Source: Nitrosopumilus sp.
Lineage (GTDB): Archaea > Thermoproteota > Nitrososphaeria > Nitrososphaerales > Nitrosopumilaceae
Assembly (NCBI GenBank): GCA_965203315.1
Contig: OZ241857.1
Span: 1,280,001-1,344,000 of the forward strand
Direction: 5' to 3'
Length of the DNA stretch: 64,000 bases
The translations under genes and the position numbers were made by a program. Below, piece after piece: positions 231 to 48,331 of this stretch (positions within the stretch are counted from its first letter, which is position 1; each line of letters starts with the position of its first letter). The notes under the pieces are model-generated. The model saw only the letters and a list, made by a program, of their open reading frames with translations, was not told the origin of the DNA and made no database searches.

Positions 231-1673
231 ATGAAAAGAGAACTAGCCTCTGCACTAAATTATGCATTAACCAAAGGGGTACAGATACACCCCAACGCAT
301 TTAAGATCTTGGAGAGTGTGGATGCAAGGCAGTTAGACAAGATCATCAAGGATGTTGTTAGAGAGAAGACTAGTAAGAGACTATTCCAGATAGGTCAGGA
401 TGATCTAGAATCGTATCTAGGAATTAAAGATGATATTCTACTACAAGCAGACGCACGAGTCTTGGTAGATCCTACTGACAAGATCACAACTGGTGAAGGT
501 GTTGAAGGCTTTTCGTCACTCTTTGTTAGTAGGTTCAATAAACTGAAGCGAGTTGTATCTGAACGACCAGAAGCAAAGATGCTAAAGGGGATCAATCACA
601 CCAAGAACGTAAAGACCAAGGATGATATCTACGTCTGTGGATTAATAACAGATAGAGTTGTGAATCAAAACTTTACAAAACTGGTCATTGAGGATCCTAC
701 AGGAGTCTTTGAGGGGAACATATTTGATGGTGATCTACAAAGAATGGCCGACGGACTACTCTTGGATCAGTTTGTTATGTTAAGGGTAGGAACTACCAAG
801 AATGGGTTTGTGATCAAAGACGTAATTCTGCCAGATATACCAGATCGGAGCGTCAATCATGCAGAGAGTGATGTGTTTGCTGTACTTCTCTCAGATCTGC
901 ATATAGGAAGTAGATACTTTATGGAGGAAGAGTTTAGTGAGTTTATCGATTGGATATCTAGTCCGGATCCCATTGCTCGAAAGATACGATTTGTACTCAT
1001 ATGTGGTGATCTGATAGATGGTGTTGGAATATATCCAAACCAGAATAAAGAGTTAGTTTATGATACAGTTGAAGAACAACTAGCTAGAACAGAAGAGTTG
1101 TTGGCCAAGATCCCAACGAATGTCAAGATCATAATTATGCCTGGCAATCACGATCCTGGTAGACGAGCATTGCCACAACCAGCAATACCAGAAAAATATA
1201 ATCAGGGTCTATGGCATAGAGAGAATGTCATAATGGTTGGTAACCCAGCTCTAGTCTCGCTCAATGGTGTAAAGATTATGCTATTTCATGGTCAAAGTAT
1301 AGATGATATTGTAAAGACTACGCCTGGTCTCAGCTACAAAAACCCCACAGGCGTTATGAGATATCTCTTGAAAGCAAGGCATCTAAGTCCTATCTACGGT
1401 AGTCAAACACCAATAGCACCAGAGAAGGAGGATCATATGGTAATAGAGCACATACCAGACATCTTTCATGTAGGTCATGTACATAGAGCAGAAGTAGATA
1501 GATACAAGGGCATCTTGTTGATCAACTCTGGTTCATGGCAACTACAGACTCCATTTCAGTCCAGTGTTGGGATGGTTCCAAATCCTGGTATCGCCATTAT
1601 GGTGAACTTGAAGACATTTCAAATATTACACCAAAACTATAACCCCGATCTAGACAATGTCTTGCAGAGTTAG
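231..1673 (+). CDS. polB: DNA polymerase D small subunit DP1 (proofreading exonuclease)
   Basis: OB-fold region plus calcineurin-like motifs SDLHIGS, GDLIDG, PGNHD, FHGQS, GHVH. Confidence 0.95.
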   Translation: MKRELASALNYALTKGVQIHPNAFKILESVDARQLDKIIKDVVREKTSKRLFQIGQDDLESYLGIKDDILLQADARVLVDPTDKITTGEGVEGFSSLFVSRFNKLKRVVSERPEAKMLKGINHTKNVKTKDDIYVCGLITDRVVNQNFTKLVIEDPTGVFEGNIFDGDLQRMADGLLLDQFVMLRVGTTKNGFVIKDVILPDIPDRSVNHAESDVFAVLLSDLHIGSRYFMEEEFSEFIDWISSPDPIARKIRFVLICGDLIDGVGIYPNQNKELVYDTVEEQLARTEELLAKIPTNVKIIIMPGNHDPGRRALPQPAIPEKYNQGLWHRENVIMVGNPALVSLNGVKIMLFHGQSIDDIVKTTPGLSYKNPTGVMRYLLKARHLSPIYGSQTPIAPEKEDHMVIEHIPDIFHVGHVHRAEVDRYKGILLINSGSWQLQTPFQSSVGMVPNPGIAIMVNLKTFQILHQNYNPDLDNVLQS

Positions 1674-2879
1674 ATCGCTCTGGAATGATCTCTTTACTAT
1701 CTCTGTCGATACCATGAGTGTGTATTTTTTTGTACGACCGTGAACACCTTGGCTCATCAACCTCCCACTTATAATCCCAGAGAGTTCAATATCTCCCAAT
1801 ATCTGGGTTATTCGTCTGGATGTTAGAGCGTCTCGTGCAACTGTCTTGCAGATGTTCTTATAAGATCTGTATACCTCACCCGTCATAGAGTTATTTGCTT
1901 TGAGAATAGCTAGAATCACTAATTTTTCGTGTAGAGGAAGTGAGCGGAGTAGAGTCTCTTCTTTATTCTCTTCGATCTTTTTAAATGCAGTGCGTATATG
2001 ATGATCATTTACTTTGTTTGATTGTTCGCGTTCTGCCACTTCACCTGCAACACGTATCAAATCAATAGCTCTACGAGCATCGCCATGTTCTTGTGCAGCA
2101 AGTGCAGCACATAAAGATAGAGCAGCGTCTTCTACTGCATTCTCAACAAAGGCATCATTTACCCTTGTTTTGATTATCTTGTGTAGTTGGTCGACATTAT
2201 AACTCTCAAAGACAAGCTCTTCTTCGCCGAGCGTACTGATGACTCTGGGGTCTAATCTCTCTTTAAATGTGAGATCATTAGATATGCCAACTAGGGTTAA
2301 AGAGCCCGAGCCCAGTCTCTCATTTGCTCGTGTTAGTTGATACAAGATATCTTTGTTAGTCTTTGAGACTAGTTGTGTAAGATAGTCGATCTCATCTATA
2401 ACAAATATCGCATTAATATTCTCAGACTCTATCTTGGATAATAGACGTTTAAAGATCTCACTTATTGAAAGACCTGTAGGTGGAAGTCTCTTCTCATCTA
2501 GATCTAATTGTCTACCAAAACTTACTAACAAACCAGACAGAGTCGTCTCATTCTTAGAGTTTGTGTATACTAGTTTGATTGGAAAGTTTGAGGATTCAAC
2601 TTTTTCTTGAATTTTGGATATAATCTTCTTCACTACAAGAGTCTTACCAGTGCCAGGTTTACCATATACAAGAAGATTTGATGGACGGGATTGTTTGAGG
2701 ATTGGTAGTAATGATTGAGTTACCTCTCTCTGTTCTTCATCACGATGCTCTATCATATTAGGTATGTATGTAGAATGTAAGATATCTCTATTCTTGATGA
2801 GTGATGTTCCAGACTCGACAGTGGCAAGCATTGCATCTACTGGATCAACCTGTTCATTCACTACATTACTCATACCCAC
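1650..2879 (-). CDS. cdc6: Orc1/Cdc6 replication initiator (likely start ATG 2873)
   Basis: Walker A GKPGTGKT, Walker B IDEID, sensor-2 GDARRA, C-terminal wHTH with HGRT. Confidence 0.97.
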   Translation of the reverse strand: MGMSNVVNEQVDPVDAMLATVESGTSLIKNRDILHSTYIPNMIEHRDEEQREVTQSLLPILKQSRPSNLLVYGKPGTGKTLVVKKIISKIQEKVESSNFPIKLVYTNSKNETTLSGLLVSFGRQLDLDEKRLPPTGLSISEIFKRLLSKIESENINAIFVIDEIDYLTQLVSKTNKDILYQLTRANERLGSGSLTLVGISNDLTFKERLDPRVISTLGEEELVFESYNVDQLHKIIKTRVNDAFVENAVEDAALSLCAALAAQEHGDARRAIDLIRVAGEVAEREQSNKVNDHHIRTAFKKIEENKEETLLRSLPLHEKLVILAILKANNSMTGEVYRSYKNICKTVARDALTSRRITQILGDIELSGIISGRLMSQGVHGRTKKYTLMVSTEIVKRSFQSDLTLQDIV

Positions 2880-3330
2880 ACACCCATGTTTCCACTCCAG
2901 AATATCAGATATAGTGTATAATGTATGAGGTTAATTTTGTTTAGTTTCTAATTAATTATTTTAATTCTTTTTAAAAAAATTATAGAAAGAAGTGGAGTGG
3001 AAATGAAGGTGTGTGGGTCAGGTTTAGGACTAGTTAACACCAAAGTTAAGATCATGTTAATCTGATGGGCAAATATGGTATTTTGACCCCTTCATTTCCA
3101 CTCTAGGCGTTAAGATCGCTATTAACACAGTTAACGACCAGATTTGACCCCTTCATTTCCACTCCACGCATGGATCTTGCCAGATCTGACCATCTGTGCC
3201 CAAAACTCATGTTAACTTGTTGGGTGATCTTGGGTCAGATAGGCGTGAAAATTAGTCAATATTAACAAAGTACTTTGTTAACACTTTTCTAAAGATCAAT
3301 TAATTTGTTAAAGGATTATTCATTAGATCC
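2870..3330. promoter_or_regulatory. Replication origin (oriC): four ORB elements and an AT-rich DUE
   Basis: ORBs of consensus GAGTGGAAATGAAGG(G/T)GT at about 2874-2899 (-), 2993-3018 (+), 3085-3104 (-) and 3146-3166 (-); AT-rich tract about 2930-2985; directly upstream of cdc6. Confidence 0.9.
3262..3281. promoter_or_regulatory. Perfect 20-bp palindrome TTAACAAAGTACTTTGTTAA, candidate operator
   Basis: Self-reverse-complementary; about 50 bp upstream of ORF 3333. Confidence 0.55.
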
Positions 3331-13013: not shown

Positions 13014-14114
13014 TGTGTAGTACAAAAAGTCGTTCACCCATAGCCAAATGGCTAGGTCAAGCAGACAATCCGAGTTGCAATGGAAATGAAGGTGTGTGGA
13101 TTCGCTCAGATCGGCGTTATATCGACATATTGCAAATAGAATCAATGAAACTAGATGAAACTAAAGTACGATACATCGTACTAGAGAAAAAGAAAGGAAC
13201 CAAGAATGCAATAATTGCAGAGCGGATGGACATATCGGTTCGCTGGATTCAAAAGATATGGGCTCGATACAAGAACATAAAACCAAGCCAGATAGTATAC
13301 CCAAAACCTATGGGCAGACCAAAGAAGAGTCTTCCAGGTAGACTAGAACACTCTACTATCTTGTATGCACACAAGCATTGTTATCTTGCCACAACACGTC
13401 TCAAAAGGCAGATAAAAAAGGCCACAGGAATAGATATCTCACACAATACCATATACCGCATATTGTAAGATGAATGTCTGTCTAGACGAGAACCAAAGAA
13501 GAGCCAACAACGCAAATGGGTACGATATGAGCATGAATTCACCAATTCACTATGGCATGCTGACTATAAACTACTAGATGACGGTAGATGGTTAATCGCC
13601 TATCTGGACGATGCTTCTAGGTTTATAGTTGGATACGGAGTGTTTGATCATGCAACAACAGAGAATGCACTTGCAGTATTAGATGCAGCAATCAAAAATC
13701 ACGGAAAACCAAAAGCAATACTCACAGATCGTGGAGCACAGTTCTATGCAAACAAGTCAGAGGTCAAGAAAAAGGGAATATCCAAATTTGAGATGAGACT
13801 GGCAGAACTGGGAATCAAACACATTCGTGCCAGAGTTGGACATCCACAGACCAATGGCAAGATAGAGAGATGGTTCGGTGAAGTTCAACACAAATTGCCT
13901 TTGCAGCAATTATGCAGAGTCAGTGATCCAGTAGACCTATTCGTACACAACTACAATTACGAACGACCGCACATGTCTCTTGGAAAAGGTGGGTACGAGA
14001 CGCCACATGAAGCATTTAATCGAAAAATGCCAAAAGAAGGAACAGTTATTGACGAGTCGTCAGGAGATGAACATCATGTCAAATGAAGGGGTGAACGACT
14101 TTTCATATCCCACA
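13014..14114 (+). mobile_element. IS481-family element, subfamily 1, copy A (full length)
   Basis: TIRs TGTGTAGTACAAAAAGTCGTTCACCC and TGTGGGATATGAAAAGTCGTTCACCC (21/26 identical); no TSD seen. Confidence 0.9.
13145..14086 (+). pseudogene. IS481 transposase with one in-frame TAA (13466-13468)
   Basis: Reading continues in frame through the stop: HTH, then WHAD, LTDRG, QTNGKIERW (DDE). Confidence 0.88.
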
Positions 14115-14163
14115 CAACTCATTGGATAGTAATTGTTAATAACCTTGGATTTTAAAATAACAT

Positions 14164-14301
14164 ATGATCAAAGAGAGTACTGTTAAGCGAGCTCTAATTT
14201 CATTTACTATAGGAATATGGGTTCTTACTATCAGTTATGTAGTTGTCGGAATATATCTAAAATACGGAACATGTGCGATAAATATTTTGGAGACGTGTTA
14301 G
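14164..14301 (+). CDS. Unannotated 45-aa single-TM peptide MIKESTVKRALISFTIGIWVLTISYVVVGIYLKYGTCAINILETC, copy 1
   Basis: Clean ATG to TAG; basic N-terminus, hydrophobic helix, C-x7-C tail. Confidence 0.6.
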   Translation: MIKESTVKRALISFTIGIWVLTISYVVVGIYLKYGTCAINILETC

Positions 14302-14433
14302 TCTATGATTGTCTAGTAATAATCTTATGGTGTGTTACACATAACATGTCAAATGAAGGGGTGAACGACTTTTCATATCCCACACAACTCATTGGATAGT
14401 AATTGTTAATAACCTTGGATTTTAAAATAACAT

Positions 14434-14571
14434 ATGATCAAAGAGAGTACTGTTAAGCGAGCTCTAATTTCATTTACTATAGGAATATGGGTTCTTACTA
14501 TCAGTTATGTAGTTGTCGGAATATATCTAAAATACGGAACATGTGCGATAAATATTTTGGAGACGTGTTAG
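14434..14571 (+). CDS. Same 45-aa peptide, copy 2
   Basis: Identical copy within the tandem duplication. Confidence 0.55.
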   Translation: MIKESTVKRALISFTIGIWVLTISYVVVGIYLKYGTCAINILETC

Positions 14572-14626
14572 TCTATGATTGTCTAGTAATAATCTTATGG
14601 TGTGTTACACATAAAATACTAATTAT

Positions 14627-15524
14627 GAATAGGCCTACTGGATCACTGACTCTGCATAATTGCTGCAAAGGCAATTTGTGTTGAACTTCACCGAACCATC
14701 TCTCTATCTTGCCATTGGTCTGTGGATGTCCAACTCTGGCACGAATGTGTTTGATTCCCAGTTCTGCCAGTCTCATCTCAAATTTGGATATTCCCTTTTT
14801 CTTGACCTCTGACTTGTTTGCATAGAACTGTGCTCCACGATCTGTGAGTATTGCTTTTGGTTTTCCGTGATTTTTGATTGCTGCATCTAATACTGCAAGT
14901 GCATTCTCTGTTGTTGCATGATCAAACACTCCGTATCCAACTATAAACCTAGAAGCATCGTCCAGATAGGCGATTAACCATCTACCGTCATCTAGTAGTT
15001 TATAGTCAGCATGCCATAGTGAATTGGTGAATTCATGCTCATATCGTACCCATTTGCGTTGTTGGCTCTTCTTTGGTTCTCGTCTAGACAGACATTCATC
15101 TTACAATATGCGGTATATGGTATTGTGTGAGATATCTATTCCTGTGGCCTTTTTTATCTGCCTTTTGAGACGTGTTGTGGCAAGATAACAATGCTTGTGT
15201 GCATACAAGATAGTAGAGTGTTCTAGTCTACCTGGAAGACTCTTCTTTGGTCTGCCCATAGGTTTTGGGTATACTATCTGGCTTGGTTTTATGTTCTTGT
15301 ATCTGACAAACAATTTTTGAACCCAACGAAGAGTTCTTGGTTCCTTTGCTCTTTTCTCGTACAATGTATTGTACTTTTTGTTGATCTAATTTACTCATTC
15401 TTCGAATTCGCTTCTTGCCTACATATTTCCACCTCTCATCATAGCTGCGTACACGCTTTTGACTGGATCTGGAACTTGCGCCTACACTCTTGATTGAGGG
15501 GCGAACTACTTTCCGGATCTTACA
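14627..15524 (-). mobile_element. Chimeric, truncated IS481 copy B (subfamily-2 left end fused to subfamily-1 body)
   Basis: 14627-15303 is a near-identical inverse of 13266-13942, including the same TAA; 15304-15524 matches the 55.4-55.67 kb element; left TIR TGTAAGATCCGGAAAGTAGTTCGCCCC. Confidence 0.88.
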
Positions 15525-15576
15525 GTTACCAGAACCGATCTGTAAGATATAAAAAGGGAATTTTCTCCAGCGTAAA

Positions 15577-17290
15577 TATGACAATGCAAGCAACATCGAA
15601 AGGTACGATGCCTGTTGTATTACTAAAAGAAGGCGGATCTGAGACCAAGGGTCGTGATGCTCAAAAGAACAACATTGCTGCATCAAAGATTATTGCCGAG
15701 ATCGTTCATACCAGCCTTGGTCCACGAGGTATGGACAAGATGCTTGTAGACTCACTAGGAGATGTTACAATTACAAATGATGGAGCAACAATTCTGAAAG
15801 AGATCGATGTTCAACACCCAGCTGCAAAGATGTTGGTAGAGATATCAAAGACTACGGACAACGAAGTCGGTGATGGAACCACATCAGCTGTAGTATTGGC
15901 AGGTGCTCTACTAGAGAACGCCGAATCGCTCATCGATCAGGATGTTCACCCCACAATTATCGTTGATGGGTATAGAAAGGCGGGAAAGATGACTAAGAGT
16001 TTTCTTGAAGAGATCGCCGACGAGATATCGCCTAACAATAAGGATATTTTGACAAAGATCGCCAAGACCTCAATGCAGACCAAACTAGTCAGAAAGGACT
16101 CGTCACAACTAGCAGATATTATCGTAGACTCTGTTTTGGCAGTATCTGAGAGTGATGGTGAGACGAGTAGTGTTGATATAGATGATATCAAAGTTGAGAA
16201 GAAGGCTGGTGGTTCGATCAAAGACTCTATGATCATTCAAGGAATAGTCTTAGACAAAGAGATCGTTCATGGTGGTATGCCAAGAAAGATTACCGACGCA
16301 AAGATTGCGTTGATCAATACTGCACTAGAGATAAACAAGACCGAGACCGACGCAAAGATCAATATCTCTAATCCACAGCAATTAAAGTCATTTTTAGATG
16401 AAGAGAATCGAATGTTAAAGACTATGGTTGACAAAGTGATGGCATCTGGTGCCACAGTTGTCTTGTGTCAGAAAGGAATAGATGACATGGCGCAACACTA
16501 TCTAGCAAAGGCTGGAATTATAGCCGTGAGGAGAATAAAAGAGAGTGATCTCACAAAACTGGCTAGAGCTACTGGCGCACGAATCGTTACAAACTTGGAT
16601 GATCTATTTGAAAAAGATCTTGGAACAGCTGATCTAGTAGAAGAACGAAAGATAGAGGAGGACAAGTGGGTCTTTGTAGAGGGATGTAAACACCCTAAAT
16701 CTGTAACACTACTACTCCGTGGTGGTTCACAACGAGTAGTCGATGAAGTAGAACGTTCTGTTCATGATGCATTAATGGTTGTAAAGGACGTGATCGAGCA
16801 CCCATCCATCGTAGCTGGTGGTGGAGCTCCTGAGACCTTTGCTGCAACTAAACTACGCAATTGGGCCAAGTCATTAGAGGGTCGTGAACAATTAGCTGTT
16901 GAAAAGTTTGCTGACTCTTTAGAGTCTATTCCACTAACTCTTGCAGATAATGCAGGAATGGATCCTATAGATACATTGACCCAACTCCGTTCAAAGCAGA
17001 TAAAGGGCGAAAAATGGACTGGAATCGATGTCATGAAAGGCAAGATTGCTAGTATGAATTCTAGTGATATTATAGAACCACTAGCTGTTAAACTTCAAGT
17101 CGTCTCTGCTGCTACTGAAGCTGCATGTATGATACTACGAATTGATGACGTTATTGCGACACAAAAATCTGCCGGCGGTCCACCAGGAGGAGCTGAAGGT
17201 GGAATGCCACCAGGAATGGGTGGCATGGGCGGCATGGGTGGAATGCCACCAGGAATGGGTGGCATGCCAGACATGGGCGGCATGATGTAA
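15577..17290 (+). CDS. Thermosome (group II chaperonin) subunit; the ORF-track extension to 15494 lies in the IS end
   Basis: [18 protein letters not shown]-repeat tail; TATA-like TATAAAAA about 25 bp upstream. Confidence 0.96.
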
Positions 17291-45205: not shown

Positions 45206-46211
45206 ATCAAACGAGTAAAACCATCAACCGTCTAGGTCACATCTTGTGTACATTGAGACATTGGTGTCGTCTCGTACCTAGATCTCTACCTCTAGTATGT
45301 GTCGATCAGTCTGTGATGACTAATTCTGGTTTGTGGAATATGAAAAGTCATTCGCCCCTTCATTTGACATGATGTTCATCTCCTGACGACTCGTCAATAA
45401 CTGTTCCTTTTTTTGGCATCTTTCGACTAAATGCTTCATGAGGTGTCTAGTACCCACTTTTTCCAAGAGACATGCGTGGTCGTTCGTAATTGTAGTTGTG
45501 TACGATAGGTCTATTGGATCACTTGTTCATTACATGTATCCTGCAAATACTGGAAATTTGCGTTCAACCTCTCCAAACAATCGTTCTACTTTACCATTGG
45601 TCTGTGGATGATTTACTCGTCCAAGAATATGTTGTATTCCTAACTGCTAATCTTGCCTCAAACTTGGATGTTCCTTTCTTCCTATTCTCAACTGCATTGG
45701 CGTAAAAACTGCGTTCCACGATCTGTGAGTATTGCTTTTGGCTTTCCGTATCTTTTAATGGCAACTTCTAGTACTACAAGTGTATTCTCTGTTGTTGCAT
45801 GGTCAAATATGCCATATCCAACTAAAACCTAGAAGCGTCGTCTAGATAGCTATTAACCATCTGCCATCATCTAGATCGACCTTCATCTCGCAATATGCGG
45901 TATATGGTATTGCGTGAGACATCTATTCACATGGCTTTTTTATCTGCCTTCTGAGACGTGTTGTGGCAAGATAACAATGCTCGTGTACAGGCAAGACAGC
46001 AGAATGTTCTAGTCTACTTGGAAAACTCTTCTTAGATCTGCCCATGTGTCTCGGATATATCATCTGCTTTGGTTTTACATTCTTGTATCGAGCCCACATA
46101 TTTTGAACTCAGCGAGTCGATGCTGGTTCTTTTAACTTATCGGGGGATTAAGATTAAGATGCAGGTATTTCAAGAAACGCCCTGTATGCAATTTAAAACA
46201 GTAATAATCTT

Positions 46212-47118
46212 GGCGATTGCTCATTTCGAGCCCCTAAGCATGTATTGTACCAATAAATCAAACAGATCGCATTCTCGGTTATTGTATCGCCACTCCATCT
46301 CCTTGAGATACAGTAAGAATTTCTTTGAACTCACACCTCGATACTTTGCCAAGTTCAATTTAGCAAAGCCCCAGAACCCTTCCATTCCATTGATGTGAAC
46401 ATCGCCTTTTGCGAAGCTCTTTTGATGATTAACTGATTCTCGATCATATCCATGAAAGATCAAGGTGTCATACCCTTTCCACTTGTCCGTGTATATCATG
46501 CTGCCCTTCTTTACTTTCTTGATCGTTGATTCAAGCAGAGTTTTAGCTGTGACGTCTGGTACAATGTCAACACGTACCTTGCCACCTCTCTGCAATATGC
46601 CAAAAACGATAGTCTTATTTCCGGCGCCGCGGCCTCGTTTTCCTTTACGTTTACCCCCAAAATACGACTCATCTGCTTCGATTTTGCCCTTTAATGTTCG
46701 ATATTCGTCATTTAGTTGCATTAGAATCACGCTCCTGAAAATATCAAAAGCTTTGAGTGCCGTATTGTAAGACAATCTTGCTTGTTTTGCAGCAACTCTT
46801 GCAGATACAGCTAGTTCAAACAATTTGACAAGTACCAGCCATTTTGAATATGAGATTTTGAGTGACGAAAATCTGGATTTGTTAAACGGTCTGAAATCTT
46901 TTTTGCATAATTTACAACGTAACCGATCTCTGTTTTTCATGTAATGGTATTGATCGCACTGACAAAATTTACAAACGATCTTGTCTGAACTATGAGATTC
47001 CAAATATTTCATTATTGCATACCCATCATTTCTCATCTCAAGAAGAGATATCAAATCCATCAAGACTTGCGTCTAAATTTAGTCATATTTAGTTAGGGGC
47101 TCGAAATGAGCAATCGCC
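46212..47118 (-). mobile_element. IS1595-family element
   Basis: Perfect 26-bp TIR GGCGATTGCTCATTTCGAGCCCCTAA; flanks TAATCTT / TAATCTG. Confidence 0.92.
46221..47063 (-). CDS. IS1595 transposase (intact)
   Basis: Zn ribbon, EADESYFGG, GKRGRGA, YTDKWKGY, HINGMEGFW. Confidence 0.93.
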   Translation of the reverse strand: MMDLISLLEMRNDGYAIMKYLESHSSDKIVCKFCQCDQYHYMKNRDRLRCKLCKKDFRPFNKSRFSSLKISYSKWLVLVKLFELAVSARVAAKQARLSYNTALKAFDIFRSVILMQLNDEYRTLKGKIEADESYFGGKRKGKRGRGAGNKTIVFGILQRGGKVRVDIVPDVTAKTLLESTIKKVKKGSMIYTDKWKGYDTLIFHGYDRESVNHQKSFAKGDVHINGMEGFWGFAKLNLAKYRGVSSKKFLLYLKEMEWRYNNRECDLFDLLVQYMLRGSK

Positions 47119-47333
47119 TAATCTGCAATGGGCAATCTAACCATTTTTCATAACTTGTAAAATTTTTAGAGAATATTGCGTGAAAACTATCGACCCCCCG
47201 TTAAGTTAAAAGAACCCCAATCTGAGCGAACCCACACACCTTCATTTCTACTGCAACTCAGATTGTCTGCTTGACCTAGTCATCTGGCTAGGAGTGAACA
47301 ACTTTTTGTACAACATACATAGAACACAAGATC

Positions 47334-48331
47334 TGTCTTAGACGGAAATCATTTCATATATAAACTCGAAATAAAACCATTGGTAAAGGATGCTGAATGA
47401 AAAACAAATAGCGTATATAATTAGAGAAATGCGTAAAGGCACAAGCTCATCCATCATAGCAGAGAGAATGAAGGTAACTCCCAGACGTGTGTATCAAATT
47501 TATGAATATTATATTCAGACAGGTTCAGTTCCAAAACAGCTCAATGCAGGAAGACCAAAGATAGAACCAACACCAAAACAGATTCAAATTGTAACTGCAG
47601 CATACAATGATGATCCTCGAGGTGCTATTTTTATTGCAAAACATCTGCGCTCTGCCCGCATACAAATAAGCTACAACACTGTAAAGAAGATCATGAAAGC
47701 AAAAGGTTTAGCATCTCCAGCATCTACAAACCGAACGCGTCACAAATGGATTCGCTTTGAACGAAAGTACTCTAACGCAATGTGGCATGTAGACTGGCAT
47801 GTCATAAAAGACTCCAGATGGCAAAATCTATACCTAATTTGCTACCTAGATGATGCATCCAGATGTATTACGGGCTTTGGAGTCTTTCAACATCCCACAA
47901 CAGAGAATGCACTACTTGTATTAGACAAAGCAATTAAGACGTTTGGAAGACCTGCACAGATACTATCTGATCATGGCCCCCAGTTTACATCTAACAAAGA
48001 ACCAAAGAAAGGTAAAAAGAAACCTACGCACTTTGAAAGAGCTTTACAAAAGCGTAAAATTACTCACATACTTGCAGGAGTGGGTCGTCCACAAACCAAT
48101 GGTAAGATAGAGAGATTCTTTGGAACATTTGAAAATGAGGTTGAACATCATGCCAGAATTGATGAATACATTAGTCATTACAATGAAAAAAGACCACACT
48201 TTGCTCTAGATATCGATAACGGAGAAACACCGCTTATTGCTTTTAGAGCAAAACAAGCTAGTGCTGAGATTAGAAAAAACCCAAAATGGGCAGATCTTGA
48301 CTTATATATGAAATGATTTCCGTCTAAGACA
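47334..48331 (+). mobile_element. IS481 subfamily 3, intact, with 16-bp flanking direct repeat
   Basis: Perfect 30-bp TIR TGTCTTAGACGGAAATCATTTCATATATAA; CATAGAACACAAGATC at 47318-47333 and 48332-48347. Confidence 0.95.
47390..48316 (+). CDS. IS481 transposase (intact)
   Basis: HTH, WHVDW, SDHG, QTNGKIERFF. Confidence 0.94.
   Translation: MLNEKQIAYIIREMRKGTSSSIIAERMKVTPRRVYQIYEYYIQTGSVPKQLNAGRPKIEPTPKQIQIVTAAYNDDPRGAIFIAKHLRSARIQISYNTVKKIMKAKGLASPASTNRTRHKWIRFERKYSNAMWHVDWHVIKDSRWQNLYLICYLDDASRCITGFGVFQHPTTENALLVLDKAIKTFGRPAQILSDHGPQFTSNKEPKKGKKKPTHFERALQKRKITHILAGVGRPQTNGKIERFFGTFENEVEHHARIDEYISHYNEKRPHFALDIDNGETPLIAFRAKQASAEIRKNPKWADLDLYMK

Follow-up and report, generated by a model that had tools for sequence, protein, structure and literature searches.

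Links between transposition and host replication are well known in bacteria, with DnaA at the ends of Tn5 and Dam at IS10 as examples. In IS10/Tn10, Dam methylation at the 5′ end of the transposase gene restricts expression to a short interval after passage of the replication fork. In archaea the initiator is Orc1/Cdc6, and crystal structures show its winged-helix and AAA+ parts in contact with the GTGGAAA half and the G-string of the origin recognition box (ORB). ORB and mini-ORB repeats have been described for Pyrococcus (in sections of PMC1904270), and in Sulfolobales the Orc1 paralogue Orc1-2 serves as a regulator of transcription (PMC9738581). Tn5 has a DnaA site in its ends, and a review counts DnaA among the host factors that transposons have co-opted (PMC3347997, citing Yin and Reznikoff, 1987). 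We analyzed a 64,000-nucleotide stretch of the genome of Nitrosopumilus sp. (contig OZ241857.1, positions 1,280,001 to 1,344,000; hereafter the window, in whose numbering all positions are given unless a contig is named), in which an IS481-like insertion sequence (IS) carries in its left end a box resembling the ORBs of the host chromosomal origin (oriC). This box resembles an ORB, is under selection at the nucleotide level, and lies where the transposase gene begins, in fixed orientation and at a conserved distance from the gene body.

The closest analogue is Tn5/IS50, in that the IS481-like element carries a putative site of the host's chromosomal replication initiator. The site in Tn5 lies within the 19-bp terminal sequence bound by the transposase, whereas the box described here is found about 66-140 bp in from the tip, where the transposase frame starts; the presumed initiator is the archaeal Orc1/Cdc6, whose DNA recognition is unrelated to that of DnaA, the IS family is another one, and the present case is a prediction from sequence. 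A replication-linked host signal at the transposase 5′ end is the logic of IS10/Tn10 and also the logic proposed here, but the signal there is a methylation state and not a bound initiator, and the system belongs to bacteria and to another IS family. With the ORBs of archaeal oriC the IS box shares GTGGAAA, a 4-nt spacer starting with a pyrimidine and a purine (Y-R), and a G-rich string; unlike them it is single, does not lie at an origin, has no AT-rich stretch and is embedded in a coding frame. As Orc1-2 of Sulfolobales illustrates, Orc1-type proteins can regulate genes via sequence-specific sites; that protein is, however, a dedicated non-initiator paralogue, and the genome studied here has a single Orc1/Cdc6. 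The initial annotation knew of no IS481 element with an ORB, and a literature search (subscription journals and supplements lay outside it) likewise found no ORB inside an IS. In the sections available, a paper on the thaumarchaeal mobilome names Orc1 solely among the genes of integrated elements and has no mention of IS481 or ORB (PMC6563490), a paper on haloarchaeal origins places transposases near origins and not ORBs within IS (PMC3528665), and PMC5797428 reports no ORB inside an IS. DnaA is not mentioned in PMC2632911.

The IS box matches the host ORB

The 19 bp at 13081-13099 (TGGAAATGAAGGTGTGTGG) had been described as identical to 2998-3016, which lies within ORB2 (2994-3018), and the box of the second IS copy (47254 to 47230, minus strand; GCAGTAGAAATGAAGGTGTGTGGGT) as 23/25 identical to the same ORB. 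Both statements were reproduced. Over the same 25 nt the box of copy 1 is 22/25 identical to ORB2. The boxes and the features of the origin are:

13080..13101, plus strand: ORB-like box of IS copy 1, ATGGAAATGAAGGTGTGTGGAT, read as N-G-N-E-G-V-W-I in the transposase frame
47230..47251, minus strand: ORB-like box of IS copy 2, GTAGAAATGAAGGTGTGTGGGT, from a pattern scan
1650..2873, minus strand: orc1/cdc6 gene (Pfam Cdc6_lid, Cdc6_C and AAA; NCBIfam TIGR02928, 360.8 bits against a cut-off of 181.3)
2874..2899, minus strand: ORB1, a type-1 ORB, TGGAGTGGAAACATGGGTGTGTGGGT, directly abutting the cdc6 ATG (2873-2871)
2900..2993, no strand: AT-rich stretch of 94 bp between the inverted ORB1/ORB2 pair, presumed unwinding element
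2994..3018, plus strand: ORB2, a type-1 ORB, GGAGTGGAAATGAAGGTGTGTGGGT, the site matched by the IS box
3080..3103, minus strand: ORB3, a type-2 ORB, GAGTGGAAATGAAGGGGTCAAAAT, from sequence and pattern scan
3141..3164, minus strand: ORB4, a type-2 ORB, GAGTGGAAATGAAGGGGTCAAATC, from sequence and pattern scan

The genome has one ORB cluster and a single oriC, which consists of orc1/cdc6 and four ORBs and lies inside the window. The unwinding role of 2900..2993 is one that we assume from the standard layout of archaeal origins. The Orc1/Cdc6 open frame comprises 409 amino acids (1650-2879, with the ATG read at 2873-2871), and a search of the genome returned one orc1/cdc6 homologue (E ≤ 0.001) and no second copy. 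The names of protein homologues place the host in Nitrosopumilaceae. A single mapped origin is also given for N. maritimus in part of a review (PMC4010727). The same plan, two inverted type-1 boxes with one or two type-2 boxes, was present in 16/16 cdc6 regions compared (this genome and 15 other hosts). The type-1 form is GAGTGGAAA-yrnn-GGTGTGTGGGT and the type-2 form GAGTGGAAA-trar-GGGGTC. In these 16 regions the cdc6-proximal type-1 box often has a degenerate left half and is immediately followed by the ATG, and the layout of ORB1, a G-string and then an ATG, was found again in several other hosts. Five complete genomes of the same genus that are free of the IS have zero or one match each to the type-1 pattern, four in total; by coordinates three of these lie 155-160 bp from cdc6, and the fourth is assigned to it by wrap-around, the match being at one end of a circular record and cdc6 at its start. 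Because oriC of IS-free genomes has it, the type-1 ORB is a host feature independent of the IS.

Scans of the 2.47-Mb genome located the box at oriC and at the ends of this IS. The core 12-mer TGGAAATGAAGG has seven exact occurrences, three in oriC and four in IS left ends, with about 0.3 expected for a random 12-mer on both strands at uniform composition, and the resemblance exceeds chance. Three further left ends of the IS hold the core with one mismatch, which brings the box to 7/7 left ends. A looser bipartite pattern matched seven times (two oriC sites and five IS left ends), and the canonical pattern with GGGGT matched ORB3 and ORB4 only. The co-location of box and IS that had been proposed for examination was thereby seen, the exact core being limited to oriC and the left ends of this IS, and the box points toward the transposase gene, as ORB1 does toward cdc6, in agreement with the initial description.

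Several other candidates in this genome were set aside. Two other repeat families hold TGGAAATGTAGG, which is one mismatch from the box core and lacks the G-string (C1:430610, 579025, 1018437 and 1925156 for one family; C1:348319, 504270, 510828 and 524887 for the other); they are probably unrelated to the box and probably account for most of the one-mismatch matches. A second own-genome subfamily of the IS carries GGTGGAAATATGTAGG and no full box; we rejected this sequence as a degenerate box, as it codes for R-W-K-Y-V-G just before M-S-K-L-D. Also rejected was AAATGAAGGGGT at the right end (14082-14093), 12 nt of which equal ORB3/ORB4, as it has no GTGG half; the match is probably a coincidence of the last transposase codons and stop region with the GGGGTGAAC terminal repeat.

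The box is retained across related elements

When 40 relatives were searched at the DNA level for the left end (13014-13300), no match outside the own genome was obtained (1/41 genomes). The element is too diverged in DNA, and relatives were therefore sought by protein-based searches. A first attempt with five genomes of other families yielded zero transposase homologues; the full tally was 39/301 genomes, including one flagged as unpublished (G147), on which nothing else depends. The comparison drew on about 20 other Nitrosopumilaceae assemblies, with 79 homologous loci in all and 22 distinct lineages among them; these are related and are not independent trials, so that all counts below overstate independence.

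A regular expression found the box in 60 of the 79 loci, with near variants in two more. Over the 18 specified positions the best match in the 22 lineages had 0-5 mismatches (median 1-2), compared with 4-9 (median 8) in 99 control segments of the same loci. In a template-free census of the 22 lineages, the most shared upstream 7-9-mers were the two box halves and the terminal repeat, and in an unanchored MAFFT alignment of 17 sequences the box was the sole conserved block. It is kept among transposases down to about 45% identity, with surrounding DNA that is unalignable. In a tree from a quick maximum-likelihood search, a clade supported at 99% by the SH-like approximate likelihood ratio test (SH-aLRT) consists of box-bearing rows; the exceptions are four rows (which also have stop codons) and one unscored decayed copy from the own genome, and one box-bearing row is basal. 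The other branches hold relatives with a short left end and no box. Elements from six other families of the order are all of this kind (15/15); these and three more from the same family lack the box, and their best matches (6-9 mismatches of 18) are at the level of the null given by the 99 controls.

At least five changes of box state are needed on the transposase tree, and a single gain is the simplest history, as would be expected if the box were a functionless relic of one ancient capture of origin DNA. Its retention across transposases of about 45% identity and unalignable surroundings, its frozen synonymous sites and its occurrence in two reading frames (see below) speak against such a relic, which we consider scarcely credible.

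Conservation of the box relative to its flanks, another point raised initially, gave a divided answer. Across IS lineages the box is conserved far above its flanks, but in dead copies of the own genome it decays much as they do: in five dead close copies 7/105 positions had changed in the box and 29/335 in the flanks, and only when two diverged subfamilies were added (9/147 against 95/469) did the box stand out. Because the box of dead copies decays like its flanks, the host evidently does not maintain it, and selection belongs to the live element.

In five other hosts the pattern GGAAANNNNGGYGKGKGGG gave 37 matches, and the reversed control 0. Eight matches were beside cdc6 and one was at 1.5 kb; 26 were at IS481-like left ends (20 in loci already fetched and six more ahead of an IS481-like transposase), and two were elsewhere. 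One 2.7-Mb host has 12 IS boxes and one exact pattern match at oriC. In one host 12 copies, too few for the purpose, showed no orientation bias with respect to replication direction. Such numbers bear on a role in the host chromosome, in which scattered copies would be dormant origins or would titrate Orc1 away from oriC. Multi-copy families do add 10 or more boxes to some genomes (12 vs 1 in the 2.7-Mb host), but the box of short elements is single, without an inverted partner or an AT-rich stretch, the paired sites of one sub-clade (see below) are direct and not inverted, dead copies in this genome decay at the rate of the flanks, and the constraint is tied to intact elements. This use, which the initial annotation had offered among others, is disfavoured, and we rate it as very improbable.

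The profile of the box follows that of host type-1 ORBs

We compared the boxes of the 22 IS lineages with 31 type-1 ORBs from the 16 hosts. The invariant bases are common to both sets, and the agreement extends to untemplated positions. Position −1 is A in 22/22 IS boxes and 31/31 host sites (also in 29/29 type-2 sites), the first spacer position (+7) is T or C in 22/22 and 30/31 (one G), and the second (+8) is A or G in 22/22 and 30/31 (one C). Two positions depart: −2 is G in 29/31 host sites and C, G or T in nine, nine and four IS lineages, and C at the third position of the G-string occurs in 6/22 IS lineages and 0/31 host sites. With 19/19 identity to ORB2 and a matching profile, the claimed likeness between the box and the host ORB is genuine.

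The suggestion that homologous IS might carry the ORB variant of their own host was not supported, as the 4-nt spacers showed no consistent match to the host and only the Y-R rule was common. This comparison has little power because, among the Nitrosopumilaceae hosts examined, the ORB is nearly identical from one to the next. The four IS lineages whose strings are richer in G (L048, L053, L058 and L060) all come from two hosts (G043 and G044) whose type-1 ORBs are also G-richer; the pairing is only a weak hint, as these two hosts also look GC-richer. The box does not have the layout of an origin ORB. It is single, lies in a transposase frame and is 10 kb or more from oriC; because of this, and because no inverted pair is present, we call it ORB-like and not an origin ORB.

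Selection acts on the nucleotides of the box within a coding frame

The initial annotation had placed the box between the left terminal repeat and a transposase ATG at 13145. The location at the left end stands, but the box is not in a spacer; it belongs to the coding frame, either within it or at its beginning. In 21/22 lineages the open transposase frame extends upstream across the box. In 12 close pairs, which are not independent, substitutions between the box and an M-K-K-L motif fell 35/36/73 on codon positions 1/2/3, compared with 165/144/175 upstream of the box. The skew of the former counts indicates a coding signature from the box onward, and ATG 13145 is probably not the true transposase start. 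Gene callers start some relatives at M-S-SGNTGVWV, M-R-SGNEGVWV or M-WVW; one lineage (L072) has a stop codon directly ahead of ATG-GAC-box; seven of the phase-2 lineages have an ATG 2-3 codons before the box; and in-frame GTG or ATG codons occur within the box. In a clade of longer elements (the long clade), TATATAAGTA follows the left repeat, an ATG lies 25 nt further on, and a conserved N-terminal peptide runs into the box. The sequence GGCGTCATATAGG upstream of the 'ATG' was considered as a TATA box and rejected, as synonymous codon changes show it to be coding (W-R-H-I-G). ORB1 at cdc6 offers a parallel, since it too is of type 1 and points toward its gene, and the coding signature of the IS starts right after the box; ORB1, however, ends exactly at the ATG, whereas the IS box overlaps the first codons, 2 to about 25 codons past the likely start depending on the clade.

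In the window copy and 14 external lineages the box translates as [S/T]GNxG[V/G][W/G]V; six other lineages and one decayed own-genome copy have VEMKVCGS instead. In the first frame group the Gly codon of the box is GGA in 13/13 cases and the Val codon GTG in 11/11, whereas conserved G, V and R codons slightly downstream vary freely at the third position, each with three or four synonyms. Where T has become G in the G-string, radical W-to-G and V-to-G replacements result, but the G-rich run is retained. Because of the two frames, the frozen synonymous sites and the retained G-run, we conclude that a constraint on nucleotides is overlaid on the coding frame.

A DNA or RNA constraint at this place might also be read by something other than Orc1/Cdc6, such as the transposase, another host protein acting at oriC, or the mRNA as part of the translation start region. 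The box overlaps the likely translation start (the nearby ATG codons, the stop codon of L072 and the in-frame GTG or ATG), the GGTG in its G-string resembles a ribosome-binding core, and the IS box deviates from host ORBs at position −2. A translation signal would, however, need neither the GTGGAAA half nor the Y-R spacer rule of the ORB, and RNAalifold predicted 0 pairs, and no conserved structure, for 17 sequences. The type-1 ORBs at oriC of IS-free genomes argue for a host protein as the reader, and the inverted pair around an AT-rich stretch beside cdc6 in 16/16 hosts points to the initiator. We regard a reader other than Orc1/Cdc6 as rather unlikely.

Position of the box and a second site in longer elements

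The distance from the box to the transposase body is 65-84 nt in 21/22 lineages. The distance from the IS tip to the box ranges from about 66 to about 140 nt, beyond the terminal repeat of ~25 nt, and the box is always oriented toward the gene. The long clade (~1.43-kb IS; lineages L031, L033, L046, L048, L053 and L060) contains a second, direct-oriented element, gcgGAGTGGAAAtg, which resembles a mini-ORB in having the dyad half only, without a G-string. It is present in 6/6 long-clade lineages and 0/17 others, 75-102 nt past the stop codon; its distance from the right end is about 105-110 nt, and its flanks vary between sub-clades. In L031, 20 nt at this second element (catgcgtggagtggaaatga) equal ORB4 and its flank in the window (3150-3169, minus strand). 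Short elements have one box at one end, with no inverted partner and no AT-rich unwinding stretch beside it.

These data bear on a second function for a bound initiator. Orc1/Cdc6 might bind the box in the service of the transposition reaction, either as an architectural host factor or as a loader of MCM or the replisome for copy-out. IS3/IS481-type elements are thought to use copy-out transposition that needs host replication, all evidence for the box as a selected ORB look-alike counts equally here, and the second mini-ORB of the long clade is hard to explain by promoter control alone. The DnaA site at the Tn5 end, with DnaA among the co-opted host factors, provides a bacterial precedent (in part of PMC3347997), and the ~4-kb circles described below, which have the same single box and no recognisable replication gene, hint that one box can suffice to exploit the initiator. 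On the other side, the box keeps its distance from the gene and not from the tip, and sites for end synapsis are usually fixed from the end; short elements, moreover, have the box at one end only, with no AT-rich stretch next to it. We view a role in the transposition step as the main rival to control of the gene, though clearly less likely.

Copies of the element in the window and in other genomes

The two copies of the IS in the window, with boundaries that derive from copy comparison and are accurate to a few bases, comprise:

13014..14116, plus strand: IS481-like element copy 1, 1103 bp, with TGTGT... ends and one in-frame TAA
13145..14086, plus strand: transposase body of copy 1 (helix-turn-helix and rve/DDE; Pfam HTH_32, rve and rve_3), stop at 13466-13468
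14075..14617, plus strand: two tandem 273-bp copies, each with the final ~40 bp of the right end of the IS at its start
14624..15330, minus strand: second, incomplete copy of this IS in inverted orientation, matching 13239-13945 at 98% identity and lacking both left end and box
47213..47315, minus strand: left end of IS copy 2, from copy comparison
46221..47063, minus strand: IS1595-family transposase inserted into IS copy 2 (Pfam DDE_Tnp_IS1595, 7e-36)
45332..46121, minus strand: remainder of IS copy 2 with a decayed transposase, from copy comparison

The left end of copy 1 reads TGTGTAGTACAAAAAGTCGTTCACCC and its right end, as reverse complement, TGTGTGGGATATGAAAAGTCGTTCACCCC. Both window copies are dead, copy 1 through the in-frame TAA and a rearranged right side and copy 2 through the IS1595-family element that splits it, and all seven box-bearing copies of this genome are broken or solo ends. 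Relatives in other genomes are clearly alive, with multi-copy families, identical copies and uninterrupted frames. A single uninterrupted transposase frame of 291-339 amino acids is present in 73/79 homologous loci, with no programmed frameshift. The ends start with TGT and share ..AAAGTAGTTC(A/G)CCCC, and the terminal repeat is ~25 nt long. Direct repeats of 15-16 bp flank the copies of four multi-copy families, and a fifth (family A) has a 14-bp repeat that does not line up exactly with the left end as inferred; target duplications of 15-16 bp are at the upper end for IS481 in ISfinder. The assignment to IS481 is tentative. For four intact relatives the best NCBIfam model is IS481 (NF033577; coverage 2-284 of 284, E 1e-52 to 1e-56), but their scores of 176.6-190.1 bits fall under the curated cut-off of 224 bits, hence 'IS481-like'; IS481 is also the best model for the transposase body of copy 1, and the window transposase fragments score 154.5 and 29.4 bits against it.

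To the right of copy 1, 14075-15330 forms a near-palindromic structure that adjoins a thermosome gene (15494-17290). Back to back with the dead copy 2 lies an intact, different IS481-like element (47390-48316, plus strand) with a 308-amino acid transposase and the left end TGTCTTAGACGGAAATCATTTCATATATAAAC; it has four near-identical copies in the genome (the others at C1:134k, C1:568k and C5:258k) and no ORB-like box. At 2.47 Mb the host genome is larger than all genomes of the same genus listed (0.7-2.2 Mb, many of them incomplete assemblies). It is rich in decayed IS481-like copies, and a transposase homologue is present in only 5/31 same-genus genomes sampled.

A related box in small circular contigs

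A separate scan of viral contigs found 12 related IMG/VR contigs (L152-L163) of 3.9-4.3 kb and 34-37% GC. Direct repeats of 50-127 bp at the termini mark all 12 as circular assemblies, and each has exactly one full type-1 box, which occupies a homologous intergenic position and is followed by AT-rich DNA. These partial loci gave no tblastn match to the transposase or to Cdc6, and the open reading frames tested belonged to no convincing Pfam or PHROG family. The ~4-kb circles may be tiny replicons that depend on the host Orc1. Across the own genome, the five other hosts and the viral-contig scan, the box was restricted to oriC, these IS and the ~4-kb circular contigs, apart from two strays.

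Discussion

The explanation we favor is that the box would be a working copy of the host type-1 ORB, selected as DNA in the first transposase codons of one IS481-like clade. The single cellular Orc1/Cdc6 would bind it, as is presumed for ORB1 at the cdc6 start codon, and from its position at the 5′ end of the gene would keep transposase transcription low. Transposase would then be made only with the initiator off the DNA, for example on fork passage or when Orc1 is inactive. Autoregulation of cdc6 via ORB1, the model for this scheme, is itself drawn from other archaea. Among the three uses proposed initially (repression or cell-cycle gating of the transposase, copy-out transposition, and scattered origins or titrating sites), gating fits best because the distance to the gene is conserved, the distance to the tip is not, and the layout parallels that of ORB1 and cdc6. 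We put at about even the chances that the box is an Orc1/Cdc6 site through which transcription of the transposase is blocked or gated.

Several points weigh against this explanation. Part of the conservation in the larger frame group could be coding constraint, and the kinship of the lineages inflates the apparent independence of the counts. In dead copies of the own genome the box changes at about the rate of its flanks (7/105 vs 29/335). The departures at position −2 and at the third position of the G-string may lower the affinity for Orc1/Cdc6. What is said here of Orc1 derives throughout from likeness of sequence, and repression is argued from position, an obvious TATA box (TATATAAGTA) being found in the long clade only.

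In a broader form of the proposal, the initiator site in the first transposase codons of this IS clade, together with the second site in one sub-clade, would let Orc1/Cdc6 license transposition once per cycle or load a helicase, and a single ORB would be a portable 'handle' for several mobile DNAs, the ~4-kb circles included. We offer this tentatively, at a little short of an even chance. If the circles are replicons, the single ORB may be their only replication signal.

The literature searched contained no archaeal equivalent of the bacterial links between transposons and replication, and the archaeal initiator, Orc1/Cdc6, is shared with eukaryotes. For annotation, ORB-based origin predictors would mark copies of these IS as origins, and in IS-rich Nitrosopumilaceae the IS boxes exceed the exact pattern matches at oriC by up to 12 to 1. 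If Orc1 binds the box, the IS would provide a natural origin-recognition site that works outside an origin, a case of overlapping codes in which a protein-binding site lies inside coding sequence in two reading frames, and a ready system for asking whether a single ORB represses, recruits MCM or has no effect.

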